This document shows positions 18,820 to 61,086 of a stretch of DNA of 64,000 nucleotides, in pieces (position 1 is the stretch's first letter; the number at the start of each line of letters is the position of its first letter). The position numbers and the translations under genes were made by a program. The stretch covers positions 3,406 through 67,405 of the forward strand of contig QNFE01000004.1 of assembly GCA_003645455.1 (NCBI GenBank), read 5' to 3'. The DNA is from Gammaproteobacteria bacterium. GTDB lineage: Bacteria; Pseudomonadota; Gammaproteobacteria; QNFE01. Under the pieces are notes generated by a model. It saw only the letters and a list, made by a program, of their open reading frames with translations, made no database searches and had not been told where the DNA came from.

Positions 18820-18831
18820 AGGATAATAAAA

Positions 18832-25114: not shown

Positions 25115-25116
25115 TT

Positions 25117-26489: not shown

Positions 26490-26590
26490 AAGCACGGAAT
26501 GACGAGAAAGAACAAAGCACGGAATGACGAGAAAGAACAAAGCACGGAATGACGAGAAAGAACAAAGCACGGAATAATGAGAGTGAGAGG
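26490..26590. repeat. Tandem 25-mer array (AAGCACGGAATGACGAGAAAGAACA x3 + diverged partial copy)
   Basis: Three perfect contiguous copies then AAGCACGGAATAATGAGAGTGAGAGG. Between the two arrays lies a unique segment related to the left dsr-flank repeat. Confidence 0.8.
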
Positions 26591-30845: not shown

Positions 30846-31210
30846 AATTTAGATCTCCATTAAAGTAAAAAACTCCCATTATAAATCGTTTTTTTTTTGC
30901 AAATTTTTTTTGCTACAAAACAAGAAAAATCCAAACTCGGGGTTTGAAATTTTCTTGTTTTGTGTTATTTATAAGAAATTTTTGCTATCAAAGTTCTGTT
31001 TTAATTGTTGGTTATCACCTAAGCCACATGAGTGCCATCTGAGGCCAAAGTAAAGTTATCTATTTTGCCTGTGTGGAAAAAGTTGTCCTGTTTGGGCGTT
31101 TGACAATAATGGAGTGGCAATAACAGCAACAGCAGATGAATTAAGTTGGTTAGTTTCATCTTCATCATTGCTACAAGAATATAATACAACAAACAAGAAT
31201 AATGGTAAAA

Positions 31211-31371
31211 TGAGACCTTTGCATAATTCAAGCACAATTTATAAAACAAATAGATTGCATATGCTTATAGCAAAAATTCGTCAAAGGGCTTGCCATATTC
31301 CTCATTTTTGTTATAAAAATGCACTATTTTTTGCATTCTCTAAACAGCACTTGAATTATGCAAAGGTCTCA
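31211..31371. repeat. MITE family 1, full-length copy (161 bp; TIR TGAGACCTTTGCATAATTCAAGCAC)
   Basis: Terminal inverted repeats of ~24 bp. The internal sequence is ~90% identical to the copy at 60853..61014 in the same orientation and to 50901..51062 in inverted orientation. Confidence 0.85.
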
Positions 31372-31433
31372 AAATATATTTGATGAATTGCATAAAATCT
31401 CCTAATCAAAAAAAAACGATTGCCAATTATTTT

Positions 31434-38608: not shown

Positions 38609-39088
38609 ATGAGATTTTTAAGCATTGATCCTGGTTCTGCCATAACTGGTTTTGGTATCATAGATAGCGATGGCAAAAAATATCATTTAATAAAACAGGG
38701 CACTATTATACTAAAAAAAATAAAAGAACATCCATTAAAGTTAAAAAAAATATATTATGAGGTAAATAATCTGATTTTGGAACATCAGCCGGATGAGTTT
38801 GCCATAGAAGATGTATTTATTAGCAAAAACCCCCAGTCTGCTTTAAAGTTAGGACAGGCACGAGGGGCTGCGATTTGTGCGGCAGTTAATAATAACTTAG
38901 GGGTTTTTGAATACTTTCCAAGAATTGTTAAAAAAACAGTAGTGGGGGCAGGCTCTGCTGATAAAAATCAAGTGCAACATATGATTAAAATCCTGCTAAA
39001 TTGTAGGGCAGAAAAGATAACAGAAGATGCAGCTGATGCCTTGGCAGTTGGCATTTGCCATATTAACCATAAACGAAATATAATATGA
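38609..39088 (+). CDS. ruvC: Holliday junction resolvase RuvC
   Basis: MRFLSIDPGSAITGFGI (catalytic Asp7); 159 aa. Confidence 0.9.
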   Translation: MRFLSIDPGSAITGFGIIDSDGKKYHLIKQGTIILKKIKEHPLKLKKIYYEVNNLILEHQPDEFAIEDVFISKNPQSALKLGQARGAAICAAVNNNLGVFEYFPRIVKKTVVGAGSADKNQVQHMIKILLNCRAEKITEDAADALAVGICHINHKRNII

Positions 39089-39666
39089 TAGCGACATTAA
39101 CAGGTTTAATTGCTTCTAAAAATCCACCATTTTTGATCTTAAATGTGATGGGTGTAGGTTATGAAGTTCAAGCTCCATTATCTTCGTTTGGCAAGTGGGA
39201 GAAAGTCGTAAAAAATGAGAGTATAACAATTTTAACTGTCCATATCGTGCGTGAGGACTCCCAAGATTTATATGGTTTTGCCACAGATGATGAAAAAAAT
39301 CTTTTTAAAACTCTGATAAAAGTCAATGGTATTGGTCCTAAGATTGCCATTGGAATTTTATCCGCCAGTGGGGTTGATGGTTTTATCGCTAATATTAACT
39401 CGGCAAATATTGATAATTTGGTGTGTCTGCCGGGGATTGGTAAAAAAACAGCCCAGCGACTTATCATCGAGATGAAAGATAAACTAACAAGCAAAGCGGG
39501 CAACAGCAAACAAGAGGCAAACTTTTTAGACAAAAATTCACAGGTTATATCTGCCTTGACGAATTTGGGTTTTAAATCAAGTGTCGCCCAACGGATGTTA
39601 GCAGGAATTGATAGCAATAACAAAACTATTGATGAGATATTAAGATTAGCATTGAAAAATAACTGA
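39085..39666 (+). CDS. ruvA: Holliday junction branch-migration protein RuvA
   Basis: MIATLTGLI...GVGYEV start and HhH motifs (LPGIGKKTAQRLI). Its start overlaps ruvC. Confidence 0.9.
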   Translation: MIATLTGLIASKNPPFLILNVMGVGYEVQAPLSSFGKWEKVVKNESITILTVHIVREDSQDLYGFATDDEKNLFKTLIKVNGIGPKIAIGILSASGVDGFIANINSANIDNLVCLPGIGKKTAQRLIIEMKDKLTSKAGNSKQEANFLDKNSQVISALTNLGFKSSVAQRMLAGIDSNNKTIDEILRLALKNN

Positions 39667-39731
39667 TGATTTATTATCCGTCTGCTCCTATGAAATAAAT
39701 ACTCCTGCCTACGGTCATGATGCCAAAAAGT

Positions 39732-39828
39732 CCGTCACTGCGAACGAGCCGCGGCGAAGTGTGGCAGTCTCTTGTTGTTATTCGTATACCACGATGAGAT
39801 CGCTCCTCGCGATGACGTATTCTTTTTA
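39732..39828. repeat. MITE-like element, family 2, copy B (shorter, ~97 bp)
   Basis: CCGTCACTGCGAACGAG...GTGGCAGTCTCT...CTCCTCGCGATGACGTATTCTTTTTA has the same termini and core as 11953..12067, with a ~22-nt internal deletion. It lies where ruvB would normally follow ruvA. Confidence 0.6.
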
Positions 39829-39838
39829 TGGCTTTTTC

Positions 39839-41377
39839 TTAATCAAAAACTACTCTGAATCCTATGTCATAACTTGTCAAAGTAGGATGCAAATATCTTT
39901 TGGAGGTTAGAATTGTATTGGATTTATCAAGTGCAAAACTACCGCCCTTGATAACGGCTTGGATATTTTGTTTTGACAAATTAAAGGTAGAGGTCCACTC
40001 CGATACATTCGCCCCCATCGCATATAAACCCAGCAAAGAAATGTCGTTTTTGTCTGATTTTATATCAATGGGATGATTTATATTATTTTCTCTGCTGTGA
40101 GTTATGATAGGCGGATTATTAGAATTTGGATAAATAAATTTATGTAAATTGACACTTTGCATCCACTGCTCTGATGTCGGCAACCTGCCACCTGCAAATT
40201 TGGCAAAAGAATAAGCACAATACCAGTTAATATTTGTGATGGGTCGGCGGGGATTCTTTAATTGTTGTTGCCAATTATTAGGCTTGCACTTGTTGTTTTT
40301 TGGTTGAGATTCGTTGGCATAAAAATTTAATTTGACAAAAGTATTATTTAAAAATTTTTGATAATCTGCAATGCTTATCTCATATTTGCTGATTTTAAAA
40401 TTATTTTTTATTCTATCTTGTTTGATGATGGAGGCTGCATCCTGATAGGATAGTTGGCTGATATGTGGCAACAGAGCGGGCATTTTTGCTTGCTTTTTCA
40501 AACCTATCGTGTATTCCCCATCTGGAATTTTTATTAAATTTAAATTTGTTCCCCAGGCAGTTGTTTTTAAATTTTCATCATAAACACATCTAAACCCCAC
40601 AAAAACGGAGCGATATTTTGGATCTTCTGGGCGATAAACAGGGTTCATAGTCCAAAGTTCGGCAGGTTTTAAATATGAATTACCACCGCTTATGATAGGG
40701 TCGCCGTGAGGATATGAACCCATAGTCCACTCTGATACCATTGTAGACATATTCTCAACACCATCTGGGGTATTGTTGGCAGGGTGAGCGCCGATTTTAG
40801 CACCGGCATTTAAAATTGGGTCATCATAAACATAAGAGCTATTATCAAATTTATCACCCCAGGCATAGGTGCGAGATGTTTTACCGCCGGCAATTGCCAT
40901 CCATTCATAAGTTGCAGGTAATCTGCCACCTGTGTTGTGACAATAACTTGTAACATCATAAAAACTTATATTATTAGCGGCAACATAATTTTCACCTAAG
41001 ATTTTATGGTTTTGTGAGAGGGTTTTTGGTTTAAAATCTTGCCCTACCCCTATTACTTTTCTGATTTTATTTTTTTTGCTATATTCCATAAACTTATAAA
41101 AATCCCCTTGACGAACCTCATATTTATCAATATATATATTTTTTAATTTATAAGTTGTAGGTGGAATTGATAAGGATTTTTGTAAGATTTCTGATTTTTT
41201 AAGATAGGCAAAATTATCTAATAAAATTTTATCAATAGGGTGAATTTTTGTGGTTTTTTTATTATTACCGATTTTTATTTTTTCAATATCAATCAATAAT
41301 CCTGCAAATAAATCTGTTAATAAAAAGATAAAAAATATGAGAGTTATAGTAGCAATTGTGGCATATATTTTTTTCAT
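39839..41377 (-). CDS. Membrane-anchored protein with two tandem FGE-sulfatase (SUMF1/formylglycine-generating-enzyme-like, GldK/PorK-type) domains
   Basis: N-terminal TM. The two repeats are ...YEVRQGDFYKFM...SFYDVTSYCHNTGGRLPATYEWMAIAGG...GFRCVYD and ...YEISIADYQKFL...NWYCAYSFAKFAGGRLPTSEQWMQSV...GFRVVFD, both matching the FGE-sulfatase domain pattern. Confidence 0.65.
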   Translation of the reverse strand: MKKIYATIATITLIFFIFLLTDLFAGLLIDIEKIKIGNNKKTTKIHPIDKILLDNFAYLKKSEILQKSLSIPPTTYKLKNIYIDKYEVRQGDFYKFMEYSKKNKIRKVIGVGQDFKPKTLSQNHKILGENYVAANNISFYDVTSYCHNTGGRLPATYEWMAIAGGKTSRTYAWGDKFDNSSYVYDDPILNAGAKIGAHPANNTPDGVENMSTMVSEWTMGSYPHGDPIISGGNSYLKPAELWTMNPVYRPEDPKYRSVFVGFRCVYDENLKTTAWGTNLNLIKIPDGEYTIGLKKQAKMPALLPHISQLSYQDAASIIKQDRIKNNFKISKYEISIADYQKFLNNTFVKLNFYANESQPKNNKCKPNNWQQQLKNPRRPITNINWYCAYSFAKFAGGRLPTSEQWMQSVNLHKFIYPNSNNPPIITHSRENNINHPIDIKSDKNDISLLGLYAMGANVSEWTSTFNLSKQNIQAVIKGGSFALDKSNTILTSKRYLHPTLTSYDIGFRVVFD

Positions 41378-42993
41378 TTTTTTTGCCTACGAATTAAAAA
41401 GAAAATAGTAAAAGTTATAAATAAAATAAAATATAACCATAAATGAAATGATGATAAATAATTTTTACTATCACTTGATTTTAATATTAACTCTTGATTG
41501 TTAATTTTTAAATCATTTTCTAAGTTTTTAATATCAAGTTTATTTTTATTTATTTTGGCAAAAATATGTCCTAAGGATATATCTTCTATATTTTTGTCAA
41601 TCAAAGCTATGACTTGCCAATTATTGCGATTTTTGATTTTTATAGGCACTAATAAAATATTATTTTTAATAATCTCATTTTCAATTCCTTGATAAAAATT
41701 ATTATAGGGATATAACGATAAAGACAATAAATTATCGGCGAAAATATAAGGTTTGTTGTTTTTTTGATAATATAAATCAAAACCTCGGATGGGAACATTA
41801 AATGGTAGTTTTATAAAATTTTTGCCGCCTTTTTTACGATTATAAATCTGTAATTTTTTTTGCTTGGTTTGGCGTATTGATTTTATTTTTCGTAAAATTA
41901 GATTGACCTCTTGATTATAAATTGAGTTATTAACAAATTTTAAAGGGTCTTTTAAGTGGGCTTGCATTTGTTGTAAAATATCTTTAATGTTAAAATTAAA
42001 AAATTTATTTTTATTTTCAATCTCTTGGGCTTGATGTAAATATAACAATAAAAAATTTAACATAAATCTCTCATATGAAACCTGCGAGCTATTTAATTTT
42101 TTAAATTTTTGTTTAAAAGATAACTCGGCTTTGCCTTGCTCTCCTGCAATTTTTATTTTTAACTTTCGGTTGCTGAAACCTTTTATACCATGTTCTTTTT
42201 GTTGGCGTTTTTTAGCAAATGATTGAGTTAGTGCCTCGGATAAGGATAGGTTTTGTGAATCTCTTTTTTGTTTGCCAATATCGGATGGAATCCTATCATC
42301 AAATGGCGAGTTTTGCATTCTGTCAAAGTCAAAATCTGTATTATTTGGTAGGCTATGAGAAAAATCCGGTTTATCCTCTGTTGGTTTTTCTGTTGTTTCC
42401 GTTTGTTTGTCAAGGGTAAAATTAGTTTTTGTATTTTTTTGTTTTTTGTTTTTCAAACGAGCATTTGCCATATCCTCGCCATTATAATGCCAATGACGAA
42501 TTTTTAAGTTTTGCTCTTTGATAGCTGCCATCGTTAAATAATATAACCTGATGCTATAAATATCTGCTCTTAGCAATAATTTTTGGGGGCTTTTTAATGA
42601 CTTTAAAAATAATTCAAATTTATTGTTTTTTTGCAATAATTGATTACGAGTTATCGTTAAATTTAAATTAGGGTTAGTTTTTTCATCACCTAATATTCTA
42701 ATAAAATTATCATACATTTCAATAATAGGGGACTGTGGATTTCGTTTGTGATTATAGTCATGCAAAACCGCAGGTGATGAGCTTGGCAAATCATTGACGA
42801 TTATTTTATTTAATATGTCTTGTGCCATAACCACTTGCATATCTTTGTTTTGTTGAATTTGCACCTCGGCTTGGTGTTGTTTGACAACCAAAGATAGGAT
42901 TATTAAAATCAAAATTACTGCCACCCCATTTGCCAGAATATCTGCCAAAGCAATTCCGACAACGGATGGCAAATTTTGAGGGTTGAATTTCAT
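41374..42993 (-). CDS. Hypothetical 539-aa lysine-rich protein with N-terminal ExbD/MotB-like TM segment (with Asp) and C-terminal TM segment
   Basis: N-terminal TM VGIALADILANGVAVILILIIL, central low-complexity K/N/Q-rich region, and C-terminal TM LWLYFILFITFTIFFLI. Overlapping stops/starts indicate translational coupling with its neighbours. Confidence 0.45.
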   Translation of the reverse strand: MKFNPQNLPSVVGIALADILANGVAVILILIILSLVVKQHQAEVQIQQNKDMQVVMAQDILNKIIVNDLPSSSPAVLHDYNHKRNPQSPIIEMYDNFIRILGDEKTNPNLNLTITRNQLLQKNNKFELFLKSLKSPQKLLLRADIYSIRLYYLTMAAIKEQNLKIRHWHYNGEDMANARLKNKKQKNTKTNFTLDKQTETTEKPTEDKPDFSHSLPNNTDFDFDRMQNSPFDDRIPSDIGKQKRDSQNLSLSEALTQSFAKKRQQKEHGIKGFSNRKLKIKIAGEQGKAELSFKQKFKKLNSSQVSYERFMLNFLLLYLHQAQEIENKNKFFNFNIKDILQQMQAHLKDPLKFVNNSIYNQEVNLILRKIKSIRQTKQKKLQIYNRKKGGKNFIKLPFNVPIRGFDLYYQKNNKPYIFADNLLSLSLYPYNNFYQGIENEIIKNNILLVPIKIKNRNNWQVIALIDKNIEDISLGHIFAKINKNKLDIKNLENDLKINNQELILKSSDSKNYLSSFHLWLYFILFITFTIFFLIRRQKK

Positions 42994-43006
42994 TTTGAGA
43001 TAGTTC

Positions 43007-43516
43007 TCATTTTTTTATGACTTTTTTAATGTGGGGCGGAATGTCTTTGATATTAACAGATTTTAATAATTCTTGATTAGCTATAATCCAGCCGATAGAT
43101 ATTTTTTTGCCGGCGAATATAGCCATAAGGCAATCACGCGATTTTTTCATTGTGCCTGCTCCGCCCTCTAAAATTGCAAAAATAATTTGTTGTTTTGGTT
43201 GGGAATAAATATTTTTTGCATACGAGACAAAAGCACTATTATTTTTGCAAATATTTGCTCTTTTAACGCTTTTTTGATCTTCAATAATGTGTAATTTATC
43301 TTTAAAACTCAGGACAACAAAACCCTCTCCATCAGAGCCCCAACTTATATTATAGATGCCATCGCTGTTATCTATATCGGCTAATCGCTGGGCTGTCGTG
43401 GATTCACTAATTAGATTAAACAACAAAAACAACACCAGCAACAAAGCGAATGCACCGCCGAAAATCTCAACTATCGCATAGTTATCACCCTCGTCATTAT
43501 TGCGATATTTTCTCAT
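43007..43516 (-). CDS. ExbD/TolR/MotB-like single-TM protein (putative stator partner)
   Basis: A short cytoplasmic N-terminus is followed by a TM with an acidic residue (AIVEIFGGAFALLLVLFLLF). The C-terminal IIFAILEGGAGTMKKSRDCLMAIFAGKKISIGWI resembles the ExbD periplasmic fold. Its start overlaps the MotA-like gene by 4 nt. Confidence 0.45.
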   Translation of the reverse strand: MRKYRNNDEGDNYAIVEIFGGAFALLLVLFLLFNLISESTTAQRLADIDNSDGIYNISWGSDGEGFVVLSFKDKLHIIEDQKSVKRANICKNNSAFVSYAKNIYSQPKQQIIFAILEGGAGTMKKSRDCLMAIFAGKKISIGWIIANQELLKSVNIKDIPPHIKKVIKK

Positions 43517-44496
43517 TTTTGCAAGTTTTGCTTTTGCAGATCACAAAAAAATTGTTCCTCCTTTTTTTGTAATAAGGTTTGCAATAATGCCAAAACTACA
43601 CTCAACGATAAAGCGATTAAAGTGGTATCAAAAGCAATGCCAAGCGGGGCAATAGCGGATGCGAGATCTGAGCCCATCTGCGACAGCCCATCTCCTCCTG
43701 CTATGATTTTTTGCAAGCCTTCGGATGCCAAAGAAATCCCCAAAACCGTGCCGATAAATCCTAATAATGGAATCGCCCAGTTAATGTATTTTAAAGTTTG
43801 ATAAAAATTATTATTTTGTTGCCAGATAACCTCAACAACATCATTAAAATTGGTTTTGTTAATTTTGATTGGTGATTTTTGTTGTTTTTTCAAGGATAAT
43901 AATTTGCCAAGCAACAACAACAACCCCCAGTTGAATAACACCAGACACAATGGCGGAATTATGCCCCTATCTAACATTTTACTATTTAAAAAACTCAAAA
44001 AATCAGGCAACATATGAGATTGAATTAAAGACAGCAACAAAGCGGACAAAATAATAGCGATTGACAAAGAAAATAACAACGGCGGCCCATTTAAAAAATT
44101 ATCTAAATATTCGTTAAATACTTTATTATTTTTTTCGTCAAATAATCTGATTAGAGCAAAGTTTATCAATACACATAAAATTATCAATACCAAAGAAAAA
44201 TGGAATCTCAAATCAATTTGAATTTTATCAGTTTGAATAATATTAAACACAACATCAAAAACAAAAATTGAGGCGAATAAAATACTAAACAAAGACAACA
44301 AATTCATTGAATGTTGCCAAAATTTGTCTTGATATTTTTTTAAACTACTCACAAAAAACCAAACAATCGGCAAAATTGTCGCTATAACAATTAATGCCGT
44401 TGTAGATATCTCAAGCAATCCTGCAACAACAAAAGCCCCTGCCAGAGAGATAATTAAATTCAATCCTAAGTTTAAATACGGATATATTTTTTTCAT
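43513..44496 (-). CDS. MotA/TolQ/ExbB proton-channel family protein
   Basis: The C-terminal INWAIPLLGFIGTVLGISLASEGLQ...LASAIAPLGIAFDTTLIALSLSVV matches the MotA_ExbB signature. It has ~6 TM helices and no long cytoplasmic tail. Confidence 0.7.
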   Translation of the reverse strand: MKKIYPYLNLGLNLIISLAGAFVVAGLLEISTTALIVIATILPIVWFFVSSLKKYQDKFWQHSMNLLSLFSILFASIFVFDVVFNIIQTDKIQIDLRFHFSLVLIILCVLINFALIRLFDEKNNKVFNEYLDNFLNGPPLLFSLSIAIILSALLLSLIQSHMLPDFLSFLNSKMLDRGIIPPLCLVLFNWGLLLLLGKLLSLKKQQKSPIKINKTNFNDVVEVIWQQNNNFYQTLKYINWAIPLLGFIGTVLGISLASEGLQKIIAGGDGLSQMGSDLASAIAPLGIAFDTTLIALSLSVVLALLQTLLQKKEEQFFCDLQKQNLQK

Positions 44497-44516
44497 TTTT
44501 TAATTCCTTTGTGAAG

Positions 44517-45479
44517 TTATACAATCATTTCAAGTCGGTTTTTGTTATCTTTAATTTTGTCTAATCTATATTGAGCGATTTTTATATATTCTTTATTAAG
44601 TTCAATTCCGATATAATTTCTATCCATCATTTTACAGGCTACGGCTGTTGTGCCTGATCCTAAAAATGGATCTAAAACAACTGCTCCTGTTTTGGTGGTA
44701 AGAGATATAAGATATTTACAGATTGATAGGGGCTTGACTGTTTTGTGGGTATTGCCTGCTCCCTTTTCTTTTTTGTTTGGTTTGCCTGTTAAAAACGCTC
44801 TGTCAATAATGGGGCTTATATTTTGAGAAGAGACAACATTCGCAGGGTGCATATTTTGATCCTTGCCGTGTTTTATAGAGGTATTTACCAACGATACATT
44901 ATGTCGCATCATATTGTTTAAAAAAGTTTTGTCAACTGGTTTTTGTGCCATGGCGATGGGCTCAAAACAGGATTTTACCTGTGGGGTTTTCCAGCCACTT
45001 AAAGTTTTTATCAATCTGTTTTTTTCAAAATCTGACATATCTAATTTTTTAATGAAATGGTTAAGGCTCATACCTTTTGGTTGGTTCATTGTGTATAACC
45101 ACATAAAACAGTCACGAATATCAAAACCTGCATCTTCTATCGCACATGCCATTCTATGATATAAACGAGGGCTTGAAAATGAAAAGAAAAATCCACCTGG
45201 TTTTAAAACCCTGTATAATTCTTCTGATATTTTTAAATACCACTTATAAAATCGCTTGCCTTGGTTTTTATCAAACTTCATACCAGCTGGCAGTGATTTA
45301 ATCGTGTGTAAATTTTTATCATTATGCACTCTATCAACATTCCATTTATTATCCATTTTATCTAAAAAATATGGTGGATCTGTCAGCACAATATCCACAG
45401 AATTTTCTTGGATATTTTTTAAAAACTCTAGTGAATCTTGATTTATTATTTTGTTTATATATTCGTTATTTTTTAACAT
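44517..45479 (-). CDS. DNA methyltransferase, beta-class N4-cytosine/N6-adenine family (DPPY then FxGxG)
   Basis: Motif IV VLTDPPYF is N-terminal and motif I VVLDPFLGSGTT C-terminal. This order indicates a PF01555-type MTase. Confidence 0.8.
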   Translation of the reverse strand: MLKNNEYINKIINQDSLEFLKNIQENSVDIVLTDPPYFLDKMDNKWNVDRVHNDKNLHTIKSLPAGMKFDKNQGKRFYKWYLKISEELYRVLKPGGFFFSFSSPRLYHRMACAIEDAGFDIRDCFMWLYTMNQPKGMSLNHFIKKLDMSDFEKNRLIKTLSGWKTPQVKSCFEPIAMAQKPVDKTFLNNMMRHNVSLVNTSIKHGKDQNMHPANVVSSQNISPIIDRAFLTGKPNKKEKGAGNTHKTVKPLSICKYLISLTTKTGAVVLDPFLGSGTTAVACKMMDRNYIGIELNKEYIKIAQYRLDKIKDNKNRLEMIV

Positions 45480-46179
45480 TGAATTTTTGCTCCAATAGTT
45501 TATATGCTTTTTTCTGTACTTCTATTGTACTTCTTAAAATTACTTTTGCATTCGCTAATTTAATTACTCTACCTTTTCTGTCATATTCCCAACGATTTCT
45601 GTCGGCTTGATTGCACTTTTGACATTGTGGAATTATGTTGCCGGCAATAAGTGGCTTTTGTGGATTCATATGGGCTTTTTGGAGTTTGGTTTTAGTTGCC
45701 GGCCAATGAAAATGAGGTTTGTTTTCAACAGAGCCACAGGTCGCACATCTGTTTTGATATTTTCTTTTTATTTCATCAAAATCATCGCCAATATCTTCCA
45801 ATCTACGGTTAGATTTAAAATCAGGATAGGGTTGTTCTAAGGTGTATAATTTGTATTCTCCTCTTTTTAAGTTTTCAACAATATTGTCTCTGCCGCCTGC
45901 GACTATCCACCAACCTTTTTGAGCCCCAAGATGTCTTGCTTGTTGCATGTCATTAGTGTTTGGATAATATTGTCTGATAAATTGAGTTAATTCGTTTTTT
46001 GATGCTACTTTTGTTTGTGGATAATTTTGAGCAAGATAGATTAAAACAAGAGCGTCTTTGGTGTAGCCTGTTTTATATTTAAGGTTAGGTAATTTTACTC
46101 CCACATCTTTTAAGAATTTACCATGGTAAGATTTGATTGTATTGTAGGTTTTATTAATAGTGCTATCTGTTAGTTTCAT
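45466..46179 (-). CDS. HNH-family endonuclease (putative Type II restriction enzyme)
   Basis: C-terminal CATCGS...H..N...CQKCNQADRNRW is a CxxC...H...N...CxxC HNH/zinc-finger nuclease pattern. The N-terminal ~130 aa is a putative DNA-recognition domain. It overlaps the downstream MTase by 14 nt. Confidence 0.65.
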   Translation of the reverse strand: MKLTDSTINKTYNTIKSYHGKFLKDVGVKLPNLKYKTGYTKDALVLIYLAQNYPQTKVASKNELTQFIRQYYPNTNDMQQARHLGAQKGWWIVAGGRDNIVENLKRGEYKLYTLEQPYPDFKSNRRLEDIGDDFDEIKRKYQNRCATCGSVENKPHFHWPATKTKLQKAHMNPQKPLIAGNIIPQCQKCNQADRNRWEYDRKGRVIKLANAKVILRSTIEVQKKAYKLLEQKFNVKK

Positions 46180-46224
46180 ATTTTTATTGTTGTTTAACTT
46201 TTAATGTTATTTTTTGTTGTATTA

Positions 46225-47640
46225 TCATTTACCAAATGTTAGTTTTTCTTTTAATAATTCGTCTTGTATTTTTACTTTATTCATTAGGTATTCCATAGGT
46301 CTGTCGCCTTTGGTTGTGTTGCAATGTCCGCATAATAATTGATAGTTTTCATAATAATCGCCGCCGCCTTTGGCTTTTGGTATTATGTGATCTATGTGAA
46401 AATCTTTGATTAAATATTCGTGGTTGCATCCTTTGCATATGCCTTTTTGTTCTTTATGTAATCTCTCTTTTATGCTGAAACTTGGAAGCTCTTTTTTAAT
46501 GTCATCTCTTTTTGGGATATCTACTCGATGAATAAAATTGCTAAATAAACCTGCATCATCGCTTAGGCGATTAACCAAAACTTCGGCGGCTTGTTTTTCA
46601 ATATCTATGCCGATCCATTTTCGGTTTAATTGTTGGGCTGCCACACAGGCTGTGGCACAACCACAAAATGGATCAAAAATTATATCACCCTCGCGACTGC
46701 TGGCTTTAATTATTCTATTTAATAAAGCTATTGGTTTTTGAGTGGGGTAGCCGGTGCGCTCGCCTCCCATAGCTCTTGGTATATCAATCCAGTTATTATC
46801 TAATGTTTTGCCATCATAATCATCAAAATATTTGCGTCGCTCTAATTTGCCATCATCTTTTATGACGATATTGCCTTTTTGATATTCCTCTTCTAACCTT
46901 TGTTTGGATAGTCTCCAACCAGATAAATGAGGGTTATTAAATCCTCGCCATGCGTAACATAAATTTGGTCTATCTCCCATTGATGGATTGCGCCAAATAT
47001 GAGCCGAATCATCATAATATCTTTTGCCTTTGTTATCAATTTTGTTGAATTTTTTAAGCATTACAGGATCATTTTCTTTGAGTTTTATCGTAGGATTTAA
47101 ATGATATTCATCACTTTTTGTATAGAATAATATAGTGTCTGTGCTGGCACCGAATTTTTTTGCTTTAAATTGACTGCCTTTCGCCCCTGTCATTCTTTGC
47201 CAAATTATTTCATTTCTAAAATTACTTTTGCCAAAAATTTTGTCTAAAACTATTTTCAAATAGTGTGAGGCTGTGGGGTCCACATGTAAATAAAAACTGC
47301 CTGTTGGTTTTAAAACTCGGTGCATTTCTATAATTCTTTGAGTCATATAAGTGATATATGCCATCATAGCTTTGCCGTGGATTCCTTCGATGGATTGAAT
47401 AAAATTAACCAAAAAAGGATAGTTGCTAAACATTTTTTCAAGATAAGATTCGTTAACATCCTCCCAACTCCACATATCAGAAAAACTCGCCCCTGCGGAC
47501 TTGCTACCAATGGGGGCAGAATAAAAACGTTTGGAATTAAAAGGTGGGTCCAAATATATTAAATCAATGCTCTCGTTATTCAAACCATTTAAAATAAATA
47601 GGTTGTCGTTGGTATATAAAGTGTTTATAAATTTATTCAT
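46225..47640 (-). CDS. DNA methyltransferase (beta-class, DPPF) fused to C-terminal HNH endonuclease domain
   Basis: IYLDPPFNS (motif IV) comes before IIFDPFCGCATA (motif I). The C-terminal CKGCNHEY...HIDHIIPKAKGG..YENYQLLCGHCNTTKG is a clear HNH motif. Confidence 0.8.
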   Translation of the reverse strand: MNKFINTLYTNDNLFILNGLNNESIDLIYLDPPFNSKRFYSAPIGSKSAGASFSDMWSWEDVNESYLEKMFSNYPFLVNFIQSIEGIHGKAMMAYITYMTQRIIEMHRVLKPTGSFYLHVDPTASHYLKIVLDKIFGKSNFRNEIIWQRMTGAKGSQFKAKKFGASTDTILFYTKSDEYHLNPTIKLKENDPVMLKKFNKIDNKGKRYYDDSAHIWRNPSMGDRPNLCYAWRGFNNPHLSGWRLSKQRLEEEYQKGNIVIKDDGKLERRKYFDDYDGKTLDNNWIDIPRAMGGERTGYPTQKPIALLNRIIKASSREGDIIFDPFCGCATACVAAQQLNRKWIGIDIEKQAAEVLVNRLSDDAGLFSNFIHRVDIPKRDDIKKELPSFSIKERLHKEQKGICKGCNHEYLIKDFHIDHIIPKAKGGGDYYENYQLLCGHCNTTKGDRPMEYLMNKVKIQDELLKEKLTFGK

Positions 47641-47683
47641 TAGTTTTTTAAAATTTGTTTAATGGTCGTATTATGCCATAATC

Positions 47684-48253
47684 TCAATGAATAATTCGCA
47701 TAAATTTATCAAATTCTTCGTTGATGAGTAAATCGTTTTGATCTATGACATCTGATATTTTATCGGTTATGGCGGTAGCCTGATTTTTGTCAGGTTTTGA
47801 TAAAACATAATTTGTAACAGCTGATTTGTCGCCAGGGTGAGAGATGCCGATTCGCAGTCGCCAAAAATCTTTGTTGCCGAAATGTTCAAATATATTTTTC
47901 AAACCATTGTGACCGCCATTGCCACCACCTTTTTTAAGCTTGATTGTGCCAGATGGTAAGTCTAACTCATCATGGGCTACTATAATATTTTGTGGTTCAA
48001 TTTTATAAAAACTAATAATAGAGGCGATGCTTATGCCGTTATTATTCATAAATTGTCGGGGTTTGATGAGATAAATATTGCCATTTTCGCTGTCTATCGA
48101 GGCGATATCTGCTTTGAATTTTAGGCTTTGTTGCCATTGGGTGTTGTGGAATTTTGCTAATTCGTCTAATAACCAAAACCCAACATTGTGTCGGGTTTTG
48201 TTATATTTTTCGCCAAAATTACCAAGTCCTGCGATGAGTTTATTTTTTCTCAT
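47684..48253 (-). CDS. pth: Peptidyl-tRNA hydrolase
   Basis: LIAGLGNFGEKYNKTRHNVGFW core. The ORF-track start at 48316 is probably an upstream extension; the likely start is Met22 at 48253. Confidence 0.8.
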   Translation of the reverse strand: MRKNKLIAGLGNFGEKYNKTRHNVGFWLLDELAKFHNTQWQQSLKFKADIASIDSENGNIYLIKPRQFMNNNGISIASIISFYKIEPQNIIVAHDELDLPSGTIKLKKGGGNGGHNGLKNIFEHFGNKDFWRLRIGISHPGDKSAVTNYVLSKPDKNQATAITDKISDVIDQNDLLINEEFDKFMRIIH

Positions 48254-49020: not shown

Positions 49021-49974
49021 TTACGAATACAGCGAACTCACAGATTCGTTGTTATGAATTCTTGATATTGCCTCTCCCAGTAAATTGGCAATCGTAATTT
49101 GTCTGATTTTTTTGCATTTTTTTGCCTCTTCTGCCAAAGAAATGGTATCGGTTACCACCAACTCATCAATTTGTGAGTTTTTAATGTTTTCCAAAGCATT
49201 GCCTGACAATACCGGATGGGTGGCATAGGATACGACTTTATTAGCTTTGTGTTCTTTTAAGGCATCAGCGGCTTTGCAGATTGTGCCTGCGGTATCAACT
49301 ATGTCATCAACGAGAATACAGGTTTTGTTGTTAACCTCACCTATGATATTCATAACTTGGGATTGATTAGGGGCAGGGCGTCTTTTATCAATTATAGCCA
49401 AATCCAAATCACCCAGTTGTTTGGCAATAGCACGGGCTCGCACGACACCGCCTACATCAGGAGAAACTACAACTAAATTATCAGTATTTTGTTTTTTGTA
49501 AATGTCGCCCAATAAAATCGGCGAGGCATAGATATTATCTACTGGAATATCAAAAAAACCTTGGATTTGCTCTGCATGTAAATCCACCGTAAGTAACCTA
49601 TCAACTTTGCTAATAGCGAACATATTAGCAATAAGTTTTGAGGTTATAGCAACACGTTGCGAGCGAACTCGGCGATCTTGTCGTGAATAACCAAAATAAG
49701 GCACAACGGCGGTAATTCTGGCAGCAGATGCACGAGATAGAGCATCCACCATTATCATAAGCTCCATTATGTTTTCATTCGCAGGGCTACTGGTGGGTTG
49801 GATTATAAAAACATCGCGTCCGCGAACATTGTCTAATATCTCAACACTAATCTCACCATCGCTAAATGTCTCGACACTGGCATCACCTAATTTTGTTTGC
49901 AAATAGGTGGCAATATCGTAACTTAGTTTTTTATTAGCATTACCTGTAAATAAAATGGCATCTGTTTGTTGCAT
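49021..49974 (-). CDS. prs: Ribose-phosphate pyrophosphokinase
   Basis: [16 protein letters not shown]... and PRPP-binding motifs. The start is taken at Met17 (49974) to avoid overlap with tRNA-Gln. Confidence 0.85.
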
Positions 49975-49990
49975 ATTTTTATATTGTGTA

Positions 49991-50065
49991 TGGCTGGGTT
50001 GGCAGGATTCGAACCTGCGCATGACGGGATCAAAACCCGGTGCCTTACCGCTTGGCTACAGCCCA
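49991..50065 (-). tRNA. tRNA-Gln (anticodon UUG)
   Basis: The reverse complement TGGGCTGTAGCCAAGCGGTAAGGCACCGGGTTTTGATCCCGTCATGCGCAGGTTCGAATCCTGCCAACCCAGCCA gives a cloverleaf with anticodon loop TTTTGAT, a T-loop GGTTCGAATCC and an encoded CCA. It closely resembles E. coli tRNA-Gln. Confidence 0.8.
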
Positions 50066-50895: not shown

Positions 50896-50900
50896 AATTA

Positions 50901-51062
50901 TGAGACCTTTGTATAAATCAAGTGCTGTTTAAAGAGGACAGAAAATAGTGCATTTTTATAGCAAAAATGAGGAATATGGTAATTCCCTTTGACGAATTTT
51001 TGCTATGAAAAGGTGCATTTTGTGTATTTTATAAATTGTGCTTGATTTATACAAAGATCTCA
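50901..51062. repeat. MITE family 1, full-length copy (162 bp), inverted internal orientation
   Basis: TGAGACCTTTGTATAAATCAAGTGC...GTGCTTGATTTATACAAAGATCTCA. It is flanked by ATTA/ATTA and ends 1 nt from the lon stop codon. Confidence 0.85.
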
Positions 51063-51063
51063 A

Positions 51064-53412
51064 TTAAACCAAAGCAATTTTAAAAACCTCTTCAATCCAC
51101 AACACGGGTTTTATTGTTATTTTTTGTAAAATAGTGACAGGAATTTCTTTTAAATCTTTTTCGTTTTCGGATGGAATAATAACTGTTTTGATGCCACCAC
51201 GATGGGCTGCGAGCAATTTTTCTTTTAAACCTCCGATAGGCAGAACTTCTCCTCGTAGAGTTATCTCGCCTGTCATAGCAACCGATGCTTTGACTTTTTT
51301 ATTTGCCAAAACTGATGCTAATGCTGTGCACATACCAACCCCTGCACTTGGCCCATCTTTGGGTGTGGCTCCCTCTGGCACATGAATATGAATATCTGTT
51401 TTTTTGTAATAGTCTTTTTTTAGTTTTAAATCATTATGTCTGTTGCGGACCACACTCATGGCAGTCTCAATAGATTCTTTCATAACGTCTCCCAGTGATC
51501 CAGTATATTTTATCTTACCATCACCTGCAAATGCCGCCGCCTCAATTGTAAGCAACTCACCACCTACTTGGGTCCATGCGAGCCCTGTAACTTGTCCTAT
51601 TTGGTTTTGTCTCGTAGCTTTACCATAGTTAAATTTATAGACTCCCAAATATTGTTCTAAATCATTAGGAGTTATCATAGTTTTAACTTCTTTTTTGTCA
51701 TCATCAGGGGCAAGGGCTATTTTTGTGACTACCTTGCGACAAACCTTAGCAATTTCTCTCTCTAAACCTCTTACTCCTGATTCACGAGTATATGTGCGGA
51801 CAATCTCTAAGATGGCAGATTTTGTAAAAAATATATCTTTTCTATCTAAGCCATTATTTTTTATTTGTTTAGGAATAAGGTATTTTTGGGCGATATTCGT
51901 TTTTTCATCCTCTGTGTAACCTGATATTTTTATAATCTCCATCCTGTCTAATAATGGCGGTGGAATATCAAGACTATTTGCTGTTGCCACAAACATTACA
52001 TCAGATAAATCATAATCAATCTCTAAATAATGATCGCCAAATGTGTTGTTTTGTTCTGGATCCAATACTTCTAACAAAGCTGAGCTAGGATCTCCTCTGA
52101 AATCTGTTGACATTTTGTCAATTTCATCCAATAAAAATAATGGATTGCTATTTTTAATTTTTGACAGATTAGTGATGATTTTGCCAGGCATTGATCCTAT
52201 GTAAGTTCTTCTATGTCCTCTGATTTGCGCCTCATCACGCACACCGCCGAGCGACATTCGGATGAATTTGCGCTTTGTGGCACGAGCGATTGAACGGGCA
52301 ATAGAAGTTTTGCCGACACCAGGTGGACCGACCAGACATAAAATAGGTCCTTTTAATTTTGCTACCTTGTTTTGCACAGCAAGATGTTCGGTGATTCTTG
52401 TTTTTACCTCATTCAATCCATAGTGATCTTTTTCTAATATGTTTTGTGCTTTGTTAAGGGTTTTTTCTAATCTGCTTTTTTTATCCCATGGCAGATCAAA
52501 AATAACATCAAGATAATTACGAATGACAGTCGCCTCGGAGCTCATAAGGTGCATTTTTTTGAGTTTTTTAAATTCTTTTTGACACTTTTCTTTGGCCTCG
52601 GAACTCATTTTAATTTTGGTAATTTTGCTTTCTATCTCTTTTAATTCTTCTTCATCATCGGCATCGTCATCTTTGTTGATCTCTTTTTTGAGGACTTTTA
52701 TTTGTTCGTTGACATAGTATTCTTTTTGGTTTTTGTCCATTTGTTTGCGAACTTTTGAATGAATTTTTTGTTCAATTTGCAAAACTTCCAATTCTTTTTC
52801 AAGATATTTTAAAATAATCTCCATTCTTGAGTCCAATTCAACGGTTTCTAAAATAGTTTGTTTGTCTGTTAGTTTTAATTTGATATGAGCCGATACCACA
52901 TCACACATAGCACCATAATTTGTCGTGTTTAGAACAGAGGATAAAATATCAGTGGGAATTTTACGATTGATTCTAACATATTGTTCAAAAACAGACAAAA
53001 CAGAACGAGACAATGCCTCAGATACTTTGTTATAACGATGTTTTTTGTCATATAGTGTTATATAATCTGCGACAAAATTTTGTGAATTATTTCTGATTTC
53101 AGTGGATACAGCACGATGCCTGCCCTCTATTAAAACCTTAATGGTGTTGTCAGGTAGTTTTACTAATTGTAAAATATTAGCAACTGTGCCGACCTTATAG
53201 AGATCTTTTAATTTGGGACTATTGGTTTTTGATGTTTTTTGGGTAGATAAAAAAATATTTTGATGGTTTTTGGTAGCAATATTTATAGCATTGATTGATT
53301 TTTTTCTGCCAATAAAAAGAGGAACCACCATCCCAGGGAATACCACCAAATCTCGCAAGGGCAATAAAGGAATAGTTTCTATTTTATGAATATCGTCTGT
53401 TGCAGTTGCCAT
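51064..53412 (-). CDS. lon: ATP-dependent Lon protease
   Basis: N-terminal LON domain, AAA+ Walker A GPPGVGKTS, and C-terminal protease PKDGPSAG; 782 aa. Confidence 0.95.
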   Translation of the reverse strand: MATATDDIHKIETIPLLPLRDLVVFPGMVVPLFIGRKKSINAINIATKNHQNIFLSTQKTSKTNSPKLKDLYKVGTVANILQLVKLPDNTIKVLIEGRHRAVSTEIRNNSQNFVADYITLYDKKHRYNKVSEALSRSVLSVFEQYVRINRKIPTDILSSVLNTTNYGAMCDVVSAHIKLKLTDKQTILETVELDSRMEIILKYLEKELEVLQIEQKIHSKVRKQMDKNQKEYYVNEQIKVLKKEINKDDDADDEEELKEIESKITKIKMSSEAKEKCQKEFKKLKKMHLMSSEATVIRNYLDVIFDLPWDKKSRLEKTLNKAQNILEKDHYGLNEVKTRITEHLAVQNKVAKLKGPILCLVGPPGVGKTSIARSIARATKRKFIRMSLGGVRDEAQIRGHRRTYIGSMPGKIITNLSKIKNSNPLFLLDEIDKMSTDFRGDPSSALLEVLDPEQNNTFGDHYLEIDYDLSDVMFVATANSLDIPPPLLDRMEIIKISGYTEDEKTNIAQKYLIPKQIKNNGLDRKDIFFTKSAILEIVRTYTRESGVRGLEREIAKVCRKVVTKIALAPDDDKKEVKTMITPNDLEQYLGVYKFNYGKATRQNQIGQVTGLAWTQVGGELLTIEAAAFAGDGKIKYTGSLGDVMKESIETAMSVVRNRHNDLKLKKDYYKKTDIHIHVPEGATPKDGPSAGVGMCTALASVLANKKVKASVAMTGEITLRGEVLPIGGLKEKLLAAHRGGIKTVIIPSENEKDLKEIPVTILQKITIKPVLWIEEVFKIALV

Positions 53413-54376: not shown

Positions 54377-54664
54377 ATGAGATTATCAAAACAAGATATA
54401 AATATTATAAAAAATACAATTCTTGACAACATAAACGATGGCAAAATTACTCTATTCGGCAGCCGTGCAGATGACAATAGAAAAGGTGGCGATATTGATT
54501 TAATGGTGGAGACAAATAAAAATATTAGTTTTGCAACTGAGCTTAATATTTTAACAAAATTAGAATTAAATGGCATTGAGAGAAAAGTAGATCTATTGCT
54601 TAAAGCTCCAAATTCAACACCACACAATATTTATAAAAAAGCGAAAAAGGGAGTACTGTTATGA
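54377..54664 (+). CDS. Minimal nucleotidyltransferase (MNT) protein, copy 2 (paralogue of copy 1)
   Basis: LFGSRADDNRKGGDIDLMVE. The N-terminus MRLSKQDINIIKN parallels copy 1 MRLSTRIISILKN. Confidence 0.7.
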   Translation: MRLSKQDINIIKNTILDNINDGKITLFGSRADDNRKGGDIDLMVETNKNISFATELNILTKLELNGIERKVDLLLKAPNSTPHNIYKKAKKGVLL

Positions 54665-55539
54665 TACAGAAACCTCCAATAACAACTGGTAAACAAAATA
54701 TACAAGATAAAATTTATACTTTAAGAGATGTTCAGGTAATGTTAGACAGAGACTTAGCTGAACTTTACGGGACTAAATCTACAAGACTCAGAGAGCAGGT
54801 TAAAAGAAATATAAAAAAATTTCCACAAGATTTTATGTTTGAACTTACTGAACCTGAAACTAATTTGATGGTATCGCAAAATGCGATACCATCAAAACAG
54901 CATTTAGGAGGCAGTTTGCCACTTGTATTCACTGAGCAAGGTGTTTCTATGCTGGCCACTGTTTTAAAAAGTGATATTGCTACACAAATAAGCATAAAAA
55001 TTATGAGAGCTTTCGTCAATATGCGAAAATTCATTTTATCTAATGCAGATATGTTTATGAGATTTGAAAGAATAGAGCATCGCATATCTTTACATGATGA
55101 AAAGTTCAATAAATTATTTCAAGCTATAGAAAACAAAGAGACCAAACCAAAACAACATATATTCTATGATGGACAAATATTTGATGCTTATCTTTATGTC
55201 CGTGATATTATAAAGTCGGCTAAAAAATCTATAAAACTTATAGATAACTATATAGACGAGAGTATTTTAGTATTATTTACAAAAAGAAATGCAGATGTAG
55301 ATATGAAAATATATACAAAAACTATATCCAAGCAATTAGAATTAGACATAAAAAAATATAATGCCCAATATCCAAAGATTGAGGTAAAAAAATTTGCTTT
55401 ATCCCATGATAGATTTTTAATCATAGATGAAAAAAAGATATATCACTTCGGAGCAAGCTTAAAAGATCTTGGCAAAAAATGGTTTGCAGTTTCAAAAATG
55501 GACATAAACTCTTTTGAACTTTTAGAGAAGTTAAAATAG
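54661..55539 (+). CDS. ORF6N (KilA-N-like) domain protein
   Basis: The N-terminal LRDVQVMLDRDLAELYGTKSTRLREQVKRNIKKFPQDFMFELT matches the ORF6N DNA-binding domain. The C-terminal half is uncharacterised. Its start overlaps the MNT2 stop. Confidence 0.65.
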   Translation: MIQKPPITTGKQNIQDKIYTLRDVQVMLDRDLAELYGTKSTRLREQVKRNIKKFPQDFMFELTEPETNLMVSQNAIPSKQHLGGSLPLVFTEQGVSMLATVLKSDIATQISIKIMRAFVNMRKFILSNADMFMRFERIEHRISLHDEKFNKLFQAIENKETKPKQHIFYDGQIFDAYLYVRDIIKSAKKSIKLIDNYIDESILVLFTKRNADVDMKIYTKTISKQLELDIKKYNAQYPKIEVKKFALSHDRFLIIDEKKIYHFGASLKDLGKKWFAVSKMDINSFELLEKLK

Positions 55540-56793
55540 ATGTTAAATAAACTCAAACCAAAATCAGAGTTTAGTCGTAATGTCCTAACTCTTATGACAG
55601 GTAGCACCATCGCCCAAGCTATCCCTATCGCTATTAGCCCTATTTTAACCAGAATTTACACTCCTGAGGATTTTGGGATATTTGCTTTATATATGAGTAT
55701 TGCCTCCATCATAGCGGTCATTGCCACAGGGCGCTATGAATTAGCAATAATGTTACCAGAAAAAGATGAGGATGCTATCAATATTGTAGCTTTATCTGCC
55801 ATCATTACAGTTATCATAAGCCTTTTAACTTTATCAATAGTTATAATATTCAACTTGCAAATTACGAATTTATTAGGCAACCCCCAAATCTCAAATTGGT
55901 TATATCTTGTGCCTATTAGTGTGCTTTTGACAGGATTTTATCAAAGTTTTAATTATTGGTCTAACCGCCAAAAACAATACAAAACCTTAGCACAAAATAA
56001 AGTTATTCAAAGCACCTCAACAGCTGGGGTCAATTTAAGTATGGGGCTGGCAAAATGGGGGGTTGTAGGTTTAATATGGGGCAATATTATAGGGCAAACT
56101 CTTGCTAGTGTAATTTTATTTAAAAATATTTTGAAAAAAAATCATAATTTGCCAACGGCAATCAATAAAAACAAAATAATTAAAATGTTGAAAAGATATA
56201 TAAAATTCCCCAAATATGATATAATATCAGCACTTGCCAACACCTCGGCACAACAGATAACCCATATTTTATTCAATATAATTTACAACCCTGCCATAGC
56301 AGGCTTTTTTTATTTTACTCAAAAAATACTTTCAATGCCAATCACTTATATATCATCTGCCATCTTAGATGTCTTTAAAGAGCAGGCAGCCCGAGATTAT
56401 AAAAAATATAATAACGCTAAAAAAATATATAAATCAACATTTATCAAATTGATGATGATTGCTATCTTGCCTTCTGTTTTTTTATATTTTTTTGCAGTTG
56501 ATATGTTTGTTATAGTTTTTGGAGAAAAATGGCAAATAGCAGGTGAATATGCCAAAATTTTGTCTCCCATGCTTTTTTTCAGATTTATGGGCAACCCATT
56601 GAGTTTTATGTTTTATATTGGCGAGAGGCAAATTTGGGATATGTATAGTCAGACACTATTGCTGTGCAGTATTCTGCTGTCTTTTTTTTGGAACACTAAT
56701 GCAACACAAACTGTATATTTTATATCTTTGGTGTTTTCTATTTTTTATATATCTCAAATTTTTTTATCCGCAAAAATTGCTAAAATATTCTAA
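55540..56793 (+). CDS. wzx: Wzx-like oligosaccharide/O-antigen flippase (MOP superfamily)
   Basis: 417 aa with ~12 TM helices and a polysaccharide-biosynthesis-protein pattern. It heads a glycan cluster. Confidence 0.65.
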   Translation: MLNKLKPKSEFSRNVLTLMTGSTIAQAIPIAISPILTRIYTPEDFGIFALYMSIASIIAVIATGRYELAIMLPEKDEDAINIVALSAIITVIISLLTLSIVIIFNLQITNLLGNPQISNWLYLVPISVLLTGFYQSFNYWSNRQKQYKTLAQNKVIQSTSTAGVNLSMGLAKWGVVGLIWGNIIGQTLASVILFKNILKKNHNLPTAINKNKIIKMLKRYIKFPKYDIISALANTSAQQITHILFNIIYNPAIAGFFYFTQKILSMPITYISSAILDVFKEQAARDYKKYNNAKKIYKSTFIKLMMIAILPSVFLYFFAVDMFVIVFGEKWQIAGEYAKILSPMLFFRFMGNPLSFMFYIGERQIWDMYSQTLLLCSILLSFFWNTNATQTVYFISLVFSIFYISQIFLSAKIAKIF

Positions 56794-56795
56794 TC

Positions 56796-60850: not shown

Positions 60851-60852
60851 AA

Positions 60853-61014: not shown

Positions 61015-61086
61015 AAATAAAATGATAAATTTACTTATCATTTATGTTATAATACCTCAAAATGATAAACAAATTTATCAAAATCT

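Follow-up and report, generated by a model that had tools for sequence, protein, structure and literature searches.

In a 64-kb stretch of a gammaproteobacterial metagenome-assembled genome (MAG; contig QNFE01000004.1, locus tags DRQ51_*), here called the window, seven genes of the minus strand fill 7.8 kb between the housekeeping genes ruvC-ruvA and pth. Our favored reading, to which we give a probability of about 55%, is that this block consists of three independent accessory modules lying head to tail, and that the module nearest to ruvA encodes an inner-membrane machine of the Ton/Tol/Mot type driven by the proton motive force (PMF). This module, named ABCD after its proteins A (327 aa), B (169 aa), C (539 aa) and D (512 aa), is a conserved, autonomous four-gene operon of rare and patchy distribution. 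It combines a protein with a MotA/ExbB/TolQ-type channel core, two further membrane proteins with a conserved acidic residue near the N-terminus, and a protein with two domains of the formylglycine-generating enzyme (FGE) fold that lack the catalytic cysteines.

The ABCD cassette and its proteins

The four genes are as follows.

43513..44496, minus strand: A, 327-aa polytopic membrane protein whose C-terminal part is a MotA/ExbB/TolQ proton-channel core (Pfam MotA_ExbB)
43007..43516, minus strand: B, 169-aa single-pass protein with Glu17 in the membrane and a small periplasmic alpha/beta domain (alignments; AlphaFold2 model, pLDDT 79)
41374..42993, minus strand: C, 539-aa two-pass membrane protein (alignment of 29 homologues; AlphaFold2 model, pLDDT 72.7)
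39839..41377, minus strand: D, 512 aa, anchored in the membrane by its N-terminus and bearing two FGE-fold domains without catalytic function, predicted to be periplasmic (Pfam FGE-sulfatase in two stretches, E 5e-43)

The gene order is kept in 14 contexts, the window included; the contexts compared were the window and the loci L008-L012 (L012-14 taken together), L015-L019, L021, L023, L029/30 and L034. Start/stop overlaps of 4 nt join A to B and C to D, and are frequent across contexts. The flanks vary and are mostly housekeeping genes, and the restriction genes of the window are not found upstream of ABCD in the 13 other contexts, with one exception in kind, a type III methyltransferase (MTase) beside the L010 copy. 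The nearest relative, L008, is 63% identical in A, 46% in C and 55% in D, and upstream of its A gene are an 840-bp spacer rich in repeats and a porin-like gene. The C family is small, as 1.84 billion proteins include 162 representatives of it at 50% identity, and for 154 of these E is 1e-10 or lower. The source names given, from Gamma- and Deltaproteobacteria MAGs, are limited to 'MotA/TolQ/ExbB proton channel family protein' and 'hypothetical protein'. In searches of viral contigs for C and of plasmids for B, neither was found. With regard to a fifth conserved gene, an all-against-all BLAST of the unannotated neighbors gave only a clade-specific protein of ~290 aa, and PADLOC had no match for seven unannotated neighbors. 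In the L019 variant (11690-14395), D is swapped for an unrelated protein of 901 aa whose only match, if any, is a weak one to fn3.

Protein A scores 24.4 bits against PF01618 (MotA_ExbB; cut-off 22.9) over residues 226-316, and its motifs W.IP..GFIGTV.GISLA and PLGIAFDTTL.ALSLS are invariant in 37 homologues. In hhalign, at 46% probability and with a two-sequence profile, these motifs fall on TM2-TM3 of TolQ/ExbB (GLFGTVWGI, GIAEALIAT); Asp290 then pairs with the conserved Glu, and Thr with Thr. Both the family match and the polar/acidic residues of TM2-TM3 that characterize MotA/ExbB/TolQ proteins are therefore present in A. The protein ends ~15 residues past its last membrane helix and has no cytoplasmic tail.

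Protein B has a short basic N-terminus, one membrane helix and a domain of ~110 residues with invariant Cys90 and Cys129. Glu17, conserved in at least 90% of 45 sequences, lies in the helix within VEIFGG.FALLLVLF; the membrane carboxylate of canonical ExbD and TolR is Asp. The modeled domain resembles the periplasmic domain of ExbD in Foldseek (8p9r_A, 8vgd_B; target-normalized TM-score 0.67-0.69, rmsd 3.0 over 83 columns) and that of TolR (5by4; probability 0.69), with E-values of 0.2-1.4 that are not significant. No Pfam or NCBIfam family is matched above threshold. Thus B has the single N-terminal membrane helix with a conserved carboxylate that is expected of an ExbD/TolR protein, and lacks the match to PF02472 (ExbD).

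Protein C starts with a helix bearing the invariant ALADILAN (Asp18). An alpha/beta domain with invariant LHDY and HWH comes next, and a disordered K/N-rich linker that varies in length joins it to an alpha+beta domain; at the C-terminus are a hydrophobic helix and, after it, the basic stretch RRQKK. Over the first ~140 residues, C can be aligned with B, collinearly but weakly (E 0.003). The linker (residues about 187-275) accounts for the lowest GC of the window (0.223 at 41001-42000), which is not foreign DNA.

Catalytic FGE carries two active-site cysteines after a GG(S) motif. In D this pair is missing from both domains, and the same holds for all nine aligned homologues. The bit scores of D against EgtB (54, cut-off 360) and SenA (47, cut-off 420) are far from family level, and the hydrophobic N-terminal anchor has no lipobox Cys. 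In two proteins, P0233 (1118 aa) and P0290, C and D are fused. Because the helix that ends C and the one that begins D make a hairpin in such a fusion, the large parts of both proteins should be periplasmic, and the fusions support both the proposed topology and a physical partnership of C with D. The 4-nt overlaps of A with B and of C with D likewise favor a complex.

A proposed proton-driven machine and its alternatives

In the machine that we propose, A would form a proton-conducting channel ring like those of MotA, ExbB and TolQ, and B, C or both would supply a central single-helix axle with a protonatable carboxylate (Glu17 in B, Asp18 in C). C would extend into the periplasm as a large loop anchored at both ends, and the membrane-anchored D would present its two non-catalytic, C-type-lectin-like FGE domains there as a binding/docking or output module. 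Proton flow would then move the periplasmic parts of C and D or change their conformation. Mot, Ton and Tol motors have a 5:2 stoichiometry, in which five channel subunits encircle two partner helices, and it is by analogy with such systems that we propose this mechanism. The sequences themselves show the gene content and synteny, the conservation of residues, the missing catalytic Cys pair and the C–D fusions, whereas the topology, stoichiometry, energy coupling, ligand and cellular role of ABCD are inferred. As to the role, work in the envelope or on surface polysaccharide is most likely, in favor of which are the envelope-type neighbors in L011, L012, L029/30 and L023, and defense is possible.

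Several points weigh against this proposal. PF02472 is unmatched in all nine B members even at E <= 10, hhalign pairs B with ExbD/TolR at 1.9% probability, and the fold matches of B are not statistically significant. For C, no relative whose structure or function is known could be detected (no match in Pfam, NCBIfam, PADLOC, PDB sequences or Foldseek-PDB). ABCD encodes no outer-membrane partner, and its stoichiometry and coupling are conjectural. Moreover, about half of the contexts have defense, toxin-antitoxin or mobile genes at a distance of about three genes or less, which fits defense equally well, and envelope-type neighbors are limited to one or two clades.

The resemblance to the Ton (ExbB-ExbD-TonB) and Tol (TolQ-TolR-TolA) systems lies in the channel core of A, whose conserved Thr and carboxylate positions align to TM2-TM3, in B as a small single-pass partner with a membrane carboxylate and a periplasmic domain that may have an ExbD-like fold (a weak match), in C as a third, longer membrane-anchored protein reaching into the periplasm, and in the tightly coupled operon. 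On the other hand, the ExbD Pfam model misses B, which has Glu instead of Asp, A has about five additional N-terminal membrane helices, and C is anchored at both ends and lacks a TonB_C or TolA domain. ABCD also has a fourth protein with two FGE-fold domains, and no TonB-dependent receptor, TolB or Pal is linked to it.

The closest analogue of ABCD, which may work similarly, is the PorLM–PorK part of the machinery for type IX secretion (T9SS). The PMF motor PorLM of that system is paired with the FGE-fold proteins PorK/GldK/GldJ, which lack the catalytic cysteines (PMC12421860; PMC12635249). In the PorKLMN (GldKLMN) system of secretion and gliding, as in ABCD, one operon encodes a PMF motor and a periplasmic FGE-fold protein without the two catalytic cysteines, which is structural or serves in docking (PMC12421860). 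However, the ABCD motor is of the MotA/ExbB type and not PorL/GldL, no PorM or PorN homologue was detected by Pfam or NCBIfam, and D has no PorK or GldK sequence match at E <= 0.001. D is held by an N-terminal helix rather than by a lipid in the outer membrane and has two FGE domains, and the host is a gammaproteobacterium whereas T9SS belongs to Bacteroidota. Of the marks of a T9SS, ABCD has the FGE fold without cysteines and lacks the PorL/M/N homologues, the lipoprotein PorK and the Bacteroidota host.

A defense role is possible, but we consider it rather unlikely. In this case ABCD would be an anti-phage system loosely like Zorya, in which D senses phage in the periplasm and gates a proton channel of A, B and C, leading to depolarization (abortive infection) or to a block of DNA entry. 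Zorya itself is defined by a ZorA with a long C-terminal cytoplasmic tail, a ZorB with a peptidoglycan-binding domain, and the effectors ZorC/D or ZorE. ABCD shares with it a MotA/MotB-like membrane pair that sometimes lies among defense genes, and A has weak ZorA3 profile matches in PADLOC (E about 3e-4), limited to the 70-residue channel core. But A lacks the long tail, B lacks the peptidoglycan-binding domain, no nuclease or helicase like ZorC, ZorD or ZorE and no other cytoplasmic effector is encoded in ABCD, and B, C and D have no PADLOC match. In STAND immune receptors and in diversity-generating retroelement (DGR)/conflict systems, FGE-fold domains do act as sensors without catalysis (PMC13581612; PMC7159879), and the rare and patchy distribution of ABCD would also suit a defense system, but the absence of C from the viral contigs and of B from the plasmids searched argues in the other direction.

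With regard to gene neighborhoods, the window, L010, L017, L029/30, L034 and L009 have defense or toxin genes no more than about three genes away from ABCD. The strong cases are four of the 14 contexts, and others have weaker defense or mobile genes.

Window, strong: restriction-modification genes
L010, strong: PDC-S01 ATPase and type III MTase
L017, strong: type I hsdMSR
L029/30, strong: DUF6088-AbiEii
L034, weaker: HigBA and insertion sequence (IS)
L009, weaker: protein with HSDR_N nuclease domain
L012, weaker: IS200 transposase
L019, weaker: SNase

By contrast, the surroundings in L015, L016, L018, L021 and L023 are plainly of housekeeping or envelope type; in L023 an M23 peptidase and a bactofilin gene lie upstream of ABCD and a SPOR-domain gene downstream. 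These five, with L019 if it is counted among the housekeeping contexts, make up about half of the total and speak against a defense role. ABCD is thus an accessory operon that lands in variable regions more often than expected by chance, as is also expected of any horizontally acquired operon, since these tend to settle near restriction or toxin-antitoxin genes, which this genome scatters widely. Adjacency to defense genes carries little weight here because the same 64 kb also contain a HipA toxin gene and, next to dnaE, a type I restriction system. For these reasons we give little force to the argument of a preliminary description of this DNA, which took the neighboring restriction genes as circumstantial evidence for a role of the MotA/FGE genes in defense or in a mobile element.

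A more specific envelope role is that ABCD energizes the export, anchoring or movement of a surface polysaccharide or glycolipid, possibly sulfated, with D binding the glycan. We regard this reading as improbable. It is suggested by one clade (L011, L012, L029/30), which has upstream of the cassette a polysaccharide cluster that includes a GT1–sulfotransferase fusion as well as Wzy_C and Bac_transf; the cassette is directly downstream of the fusion gene or two polysaccharide genes away. The gene of ~290 aa, Wzy_C, Bac_transf and GT2 genes are near ABCD in all three loci, and an SDR gene follows the cassette. The FGE fold is also related to C-type lectins (PMC7159879). However, the linkage is limited to this clade and is missing from the window and most other contexts, and the O-antigen cluster of the window is ~8 kb off and not adjacent.

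Some details of these regions may be recorded separately. In the same clade, the conserved ~290-aa protein and the ~590-aa GT1/sulfotransferase fusion are encoded at L011 5116-7929, L012 5242-7981 and L029 3440-6072, with the SDR gene downstream, and an FGE-fold protein next to a sulfotransferase is an odd pairing. The surface-polysaccharide cluster of the window (54661-62241) has a low GC (0.25-0.30) and contains genes for a flippase, DUF7033, Wzy_C, a GFO/IDH/MocA oxidoreductase and a hexapeptide transferase; an ORF6N-domain gene precedes it, and a miniature inverted-repeat transposable element (MITE) and the HipA toxin gene (61087-62241) follow.

We reject the reading of D as an active FGE, EgtB or OvoA-type enzyme, by which the cassette would mature a sulfatase or make a thiol-histidine compound, since both domains lack the Cys pair and the scores fall far short of the cut-offs. 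The chance of this reading is very slight despite the Pfam FGE-sulfatase assignment and weak NCBIfam and PDB matches to EgtB, SenA, OvsA and FGE. ABCD also has no conserved association with a DinB-like iron domain, a sulfatase gene or a methyltransferase partner.

The block beside ruvA, its restriction genes and repeats

The other three genes of the block, the repeat at its edge and the flanking genes are as follows.

46225..47640, minus strand: solitary N6/N4 DNA MTase with a C-terminal HNH nuclease domain, 471 aa (Pfam N6_N4_Mtase, E 3e-44; HNH, E 8e-12)
45466..46179, minus strand: 237-aa candidate for a restriction endonuclease that has a zinc-finger/HNH-like motif at its C-terminus; overlaps the next MTase gene by 14 nt
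44517..45479, minus strand: N6/N4 DNA MTase, 320 aa (Pfam N6_N4_Mtase, E 4e-39; PADLOC MTase_II, E 7e-52)
39732..39828, no strand assigned: decayed palindromic repeat, like repetitive extragenic palindromic (REP) sequences or MITEs; both strands carry T-runs, and another copy is at about 11957-12075
38609..39088, plus strand: ruvC, housekeeping flank (Pfam RuvC, E 1.8e-48)
39085..39666, plus strand: ruvA, housekeeping flank, convergent with the block (Pfam RuvA_N, HHH_5, RuvA_C)
47684..48253, minus strand: pth, housekeeping flank, 189 aa (Pfam Pept_tRNA_hydro, E 3e-62)
49991-50065, minus strand: tRNA-Gln(TTG), between ispE and prs

The 7.8-kb block occupies the junction of two conserved clusters, ruvC-ruvA (plus strand, 38609-39666) and ispE–tRNA-Gln–prs–ctc–pth (minus strand), of which pth is the last gene; L25/Ctc, Prs and ispE were assigned by Pfam. 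The seven minus-strand open reading frames between ruvC-ruvA and pth-ctc-prs, which the preliminary description had listed, are confirmed; their intergenic gaps are 45 nt or less, or they overlap by 4-14 nt, and all three modules are probably read through from the pth operon. The labels MTase-HNH, MTase, MotA-like and 2xFGE given there also agree with Pfam (N6_N4_Mtase with HNH, N6_N4_Mtase, MotA_ExbB and two FGE-sulfatase stretches). For two labels the profile searches give no confirmation. 'ExbD-like' for the 169-aa protein has no PF02472 match behind it, and the acidic membrane helix and the modeled periplasmic domain resemble ExbD/TolR only weakly; 'HNH' for the 237-aa protein is matched by no Pfam model, HNH models included, and by no NCBIfam family above threshold, but a conserved CxxC...HMNP...GNIIPQCxxCN finger is present.

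The genes for the 237-aa and 320-aa proteins form a horizontally mobile type II restriction-modification pair, whose nuclease activity is predicted. A homologous pair lies in the same order on the Thermus thermophilus plasmid NZ_AP025606.1, with 42% identity for the 237-aa protein and 50% for the MTase, and adjoins a transposase and an integrase there. A DNA MTase and a neighboring cognate endonuclease that are kept together define such a system, the 237-aa protein being the candidate endonuclease here, and the overlap of the two genes is as in type II systems with HNH-type nucleases, from which the window's pair differs in that the 237-aa protein has no Pfam HNH match. The 471-aa protein resembles the solitary MTase-HNH fusions, with homologues annotated as DNA methyltransferase on 43 plasmids. 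These restriction genes of the window are ordinary ones.

Elsewhere in the window (341-6346), a type I restriction system directly adjoins dnaE and rnhB and consists of hsdR (341-2710), a half-size hsdS (4045-4623) and hsdM (4889-6346), broken into by a Bro-N gene (3110-3856). These genes are each parted by a 141-nt repeat with a GC-rich hairpin (2920-3060, 3887-4027 and 4737-4877), of which fragments occur at 6367-6398 and 11591-11621.

The seven genes are three units side by side, a solitary MTase-HNH, a type II pair and ABCD, and not one island. The preliminary description had taken the whole 7.8 kb as one accessory island in the place expected for ruvB. In its full form, this view would have a mobile genomic island insert next to ruvA and displace ruvB, with a palindromic element marking its edge. 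The co-orientation and tight packing of the seven genes, the lack of ruvB in the window, the nearness of ruvB to ruvA in a Coxiellaceae MAG and the repeat at one edge are compatible with that view, which we nevertheless regard as quite improbable; neither the single island nor a replacement of ruvB is supported. No integrase or recombinase is found among the seven genes in Pfam or NCBIfam, the block ends have no direct repeats (no k-mer >=9 is common to the two boundaries), no tRNA lies at a boundary (tRNA-Gln is 2.3 kb from the block, beyond prs-ctc-pth), and the modules occur apart elsewhere, ABCD without the restriction genes of the window in its 13 other contexts and the restriction-modification pair in Thermus. 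Composition and codon usage do not deviate either: GC is 0.325 and GC at third codon positions (GC3) 0.288 in the block, versus 0.341 +/- 0.040 and 0.285 +/- 0.036 in the rest of the window, and the codon-usage distances are within range. The boundaries were said to be a MITE and pth, and a repeat does lie at the ruvA edge and pth at the other, but the repeat is on one side only and its second copy is in an unrelated intergenic region between divergent genes. On the other hand, the view of these genes as accessory in type is upheld; the restriction-modification pair is mobile (on the Thermus plasmid), and ABCD is rare, patchy and often near mobile or defense genes.

As for ruvB, tblastn of Coxiellaceae RuvB, YebC and TolQRAB-Pal proteins against the window found ruvC and ruvA only, so that ruvB is not in these 64 kb. 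In a Coxiellaceae MAG, whose ruvA is the best match among the reference genomes searched (42% identical), ruvC-ruvA are followed by one gene and then by ruvB, within 0.8 kb after ruvA. This genome is too distant, and says nothing on an insertion here because only ruvC and ruvA, and no other flanking gene, are in common with this region. Exact look-ups led from ruvA to this organism only, and from a 92%-identical B homologue to a 1.8-kb contig only.

The MITE-like element beside ruvA is a genuine repeat, as had been proposed. Its two copies share the inverted termini CGTCACTGCGA.CGA ... CTCCTCGC.ATGACG.ATTCTTTTT and the same trailing T-run; the copy at about 11957-12075 is longer and better preserved, and the ruvA-side copy has internal deletions. 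In comparison with shuffled sequences, the former folds with a z of -5.9 and the latter with -0.4 and -1.1, and a consensus terminator scan of 39732-39828 flags sub-hairpins only. The element is possibly a bidirectional terminator between ruvA and gene D. The suggestion that it ends ruvA transcription is plausible from the long hairpin and the T-runs on both strands, but the local copy folds no better than shuffled sequence, and the genes on either side of the other copy are divergent.

Other repeats were seen as well. In L008, the spacer upstream of the cassette (1750-2600) is dense in GTCATTCCCGC.../...GGCATGAC palindromic repeats, which recall the CGTCA...TGACG termini of the ruvA-side element. 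A MITE family separate from that element is represented by a 169-nt element with terminal inverted repeats (TGAGACCTTTGCATAA...), which has at least three full intergenic copies (31208-31376, 50897-51065 and 60850-61018), one of them between ispE and lon, 3.2 kb past pth, and a partial copy (25039-25121). In the intergenic region 26490-26582, a 25-nt unit (AAGCACGGAATGACGAGAAAGAAC) is tandemly repeated three to four times.

The tRNA-Gln gene overlaps the 5' end of the longest prs reading frame (49021-50022), and the true prs start is therefore probably further downstream. Two sulfite-reductase-type genes (dsrAB-like) lie at 15643-21940 together with the dsrMK-like genes that come after them, which encode a nitrate-reductase-gamma-like protein and a 4Fe-4S protein. 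Because of these genes, the host is probably a sulfur-oxidizing gammaproteobacterium.

ABCD and the known MotA/ExbB-type motors

To our knowledge, only a few classes of MotA/ExbB-type motors are understood, namely flagellar Mot, Ton, Tol, Agl/Glt gliding and Zorya, and we know of a catalytically dead FGE-fold output otherwise only from the unrelated T9SS and gliding motor. No published description of ABCD was found in the literature on MotA/ExbB-type motors with FGE proteins. A recent survey reported that many non-flagellar MotA/ExbB homologues are still of unknown function (PMC12505986). ABCD provides for such a homologue a sharply delimited, conserved set of motor partners, present in ~160 sequence clusters, and it is unusual in having two different axle-like proteins together with a catalytically dead, tandem FGE-fold output. 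We tentatively suggest a possibility that ABCD stands for a previously unrecognized class of proteobacterial proton-driven envelope machine, made of a stator, two carboxylate axles and a tandem pseudo-FGE protein and convergent with PorLM–PorK/GldJK, which may act in a new role, either in periplasmic phage sensing with PMF-gated abortive infection or in the motor-driven movement or anchoring of surface glycans.

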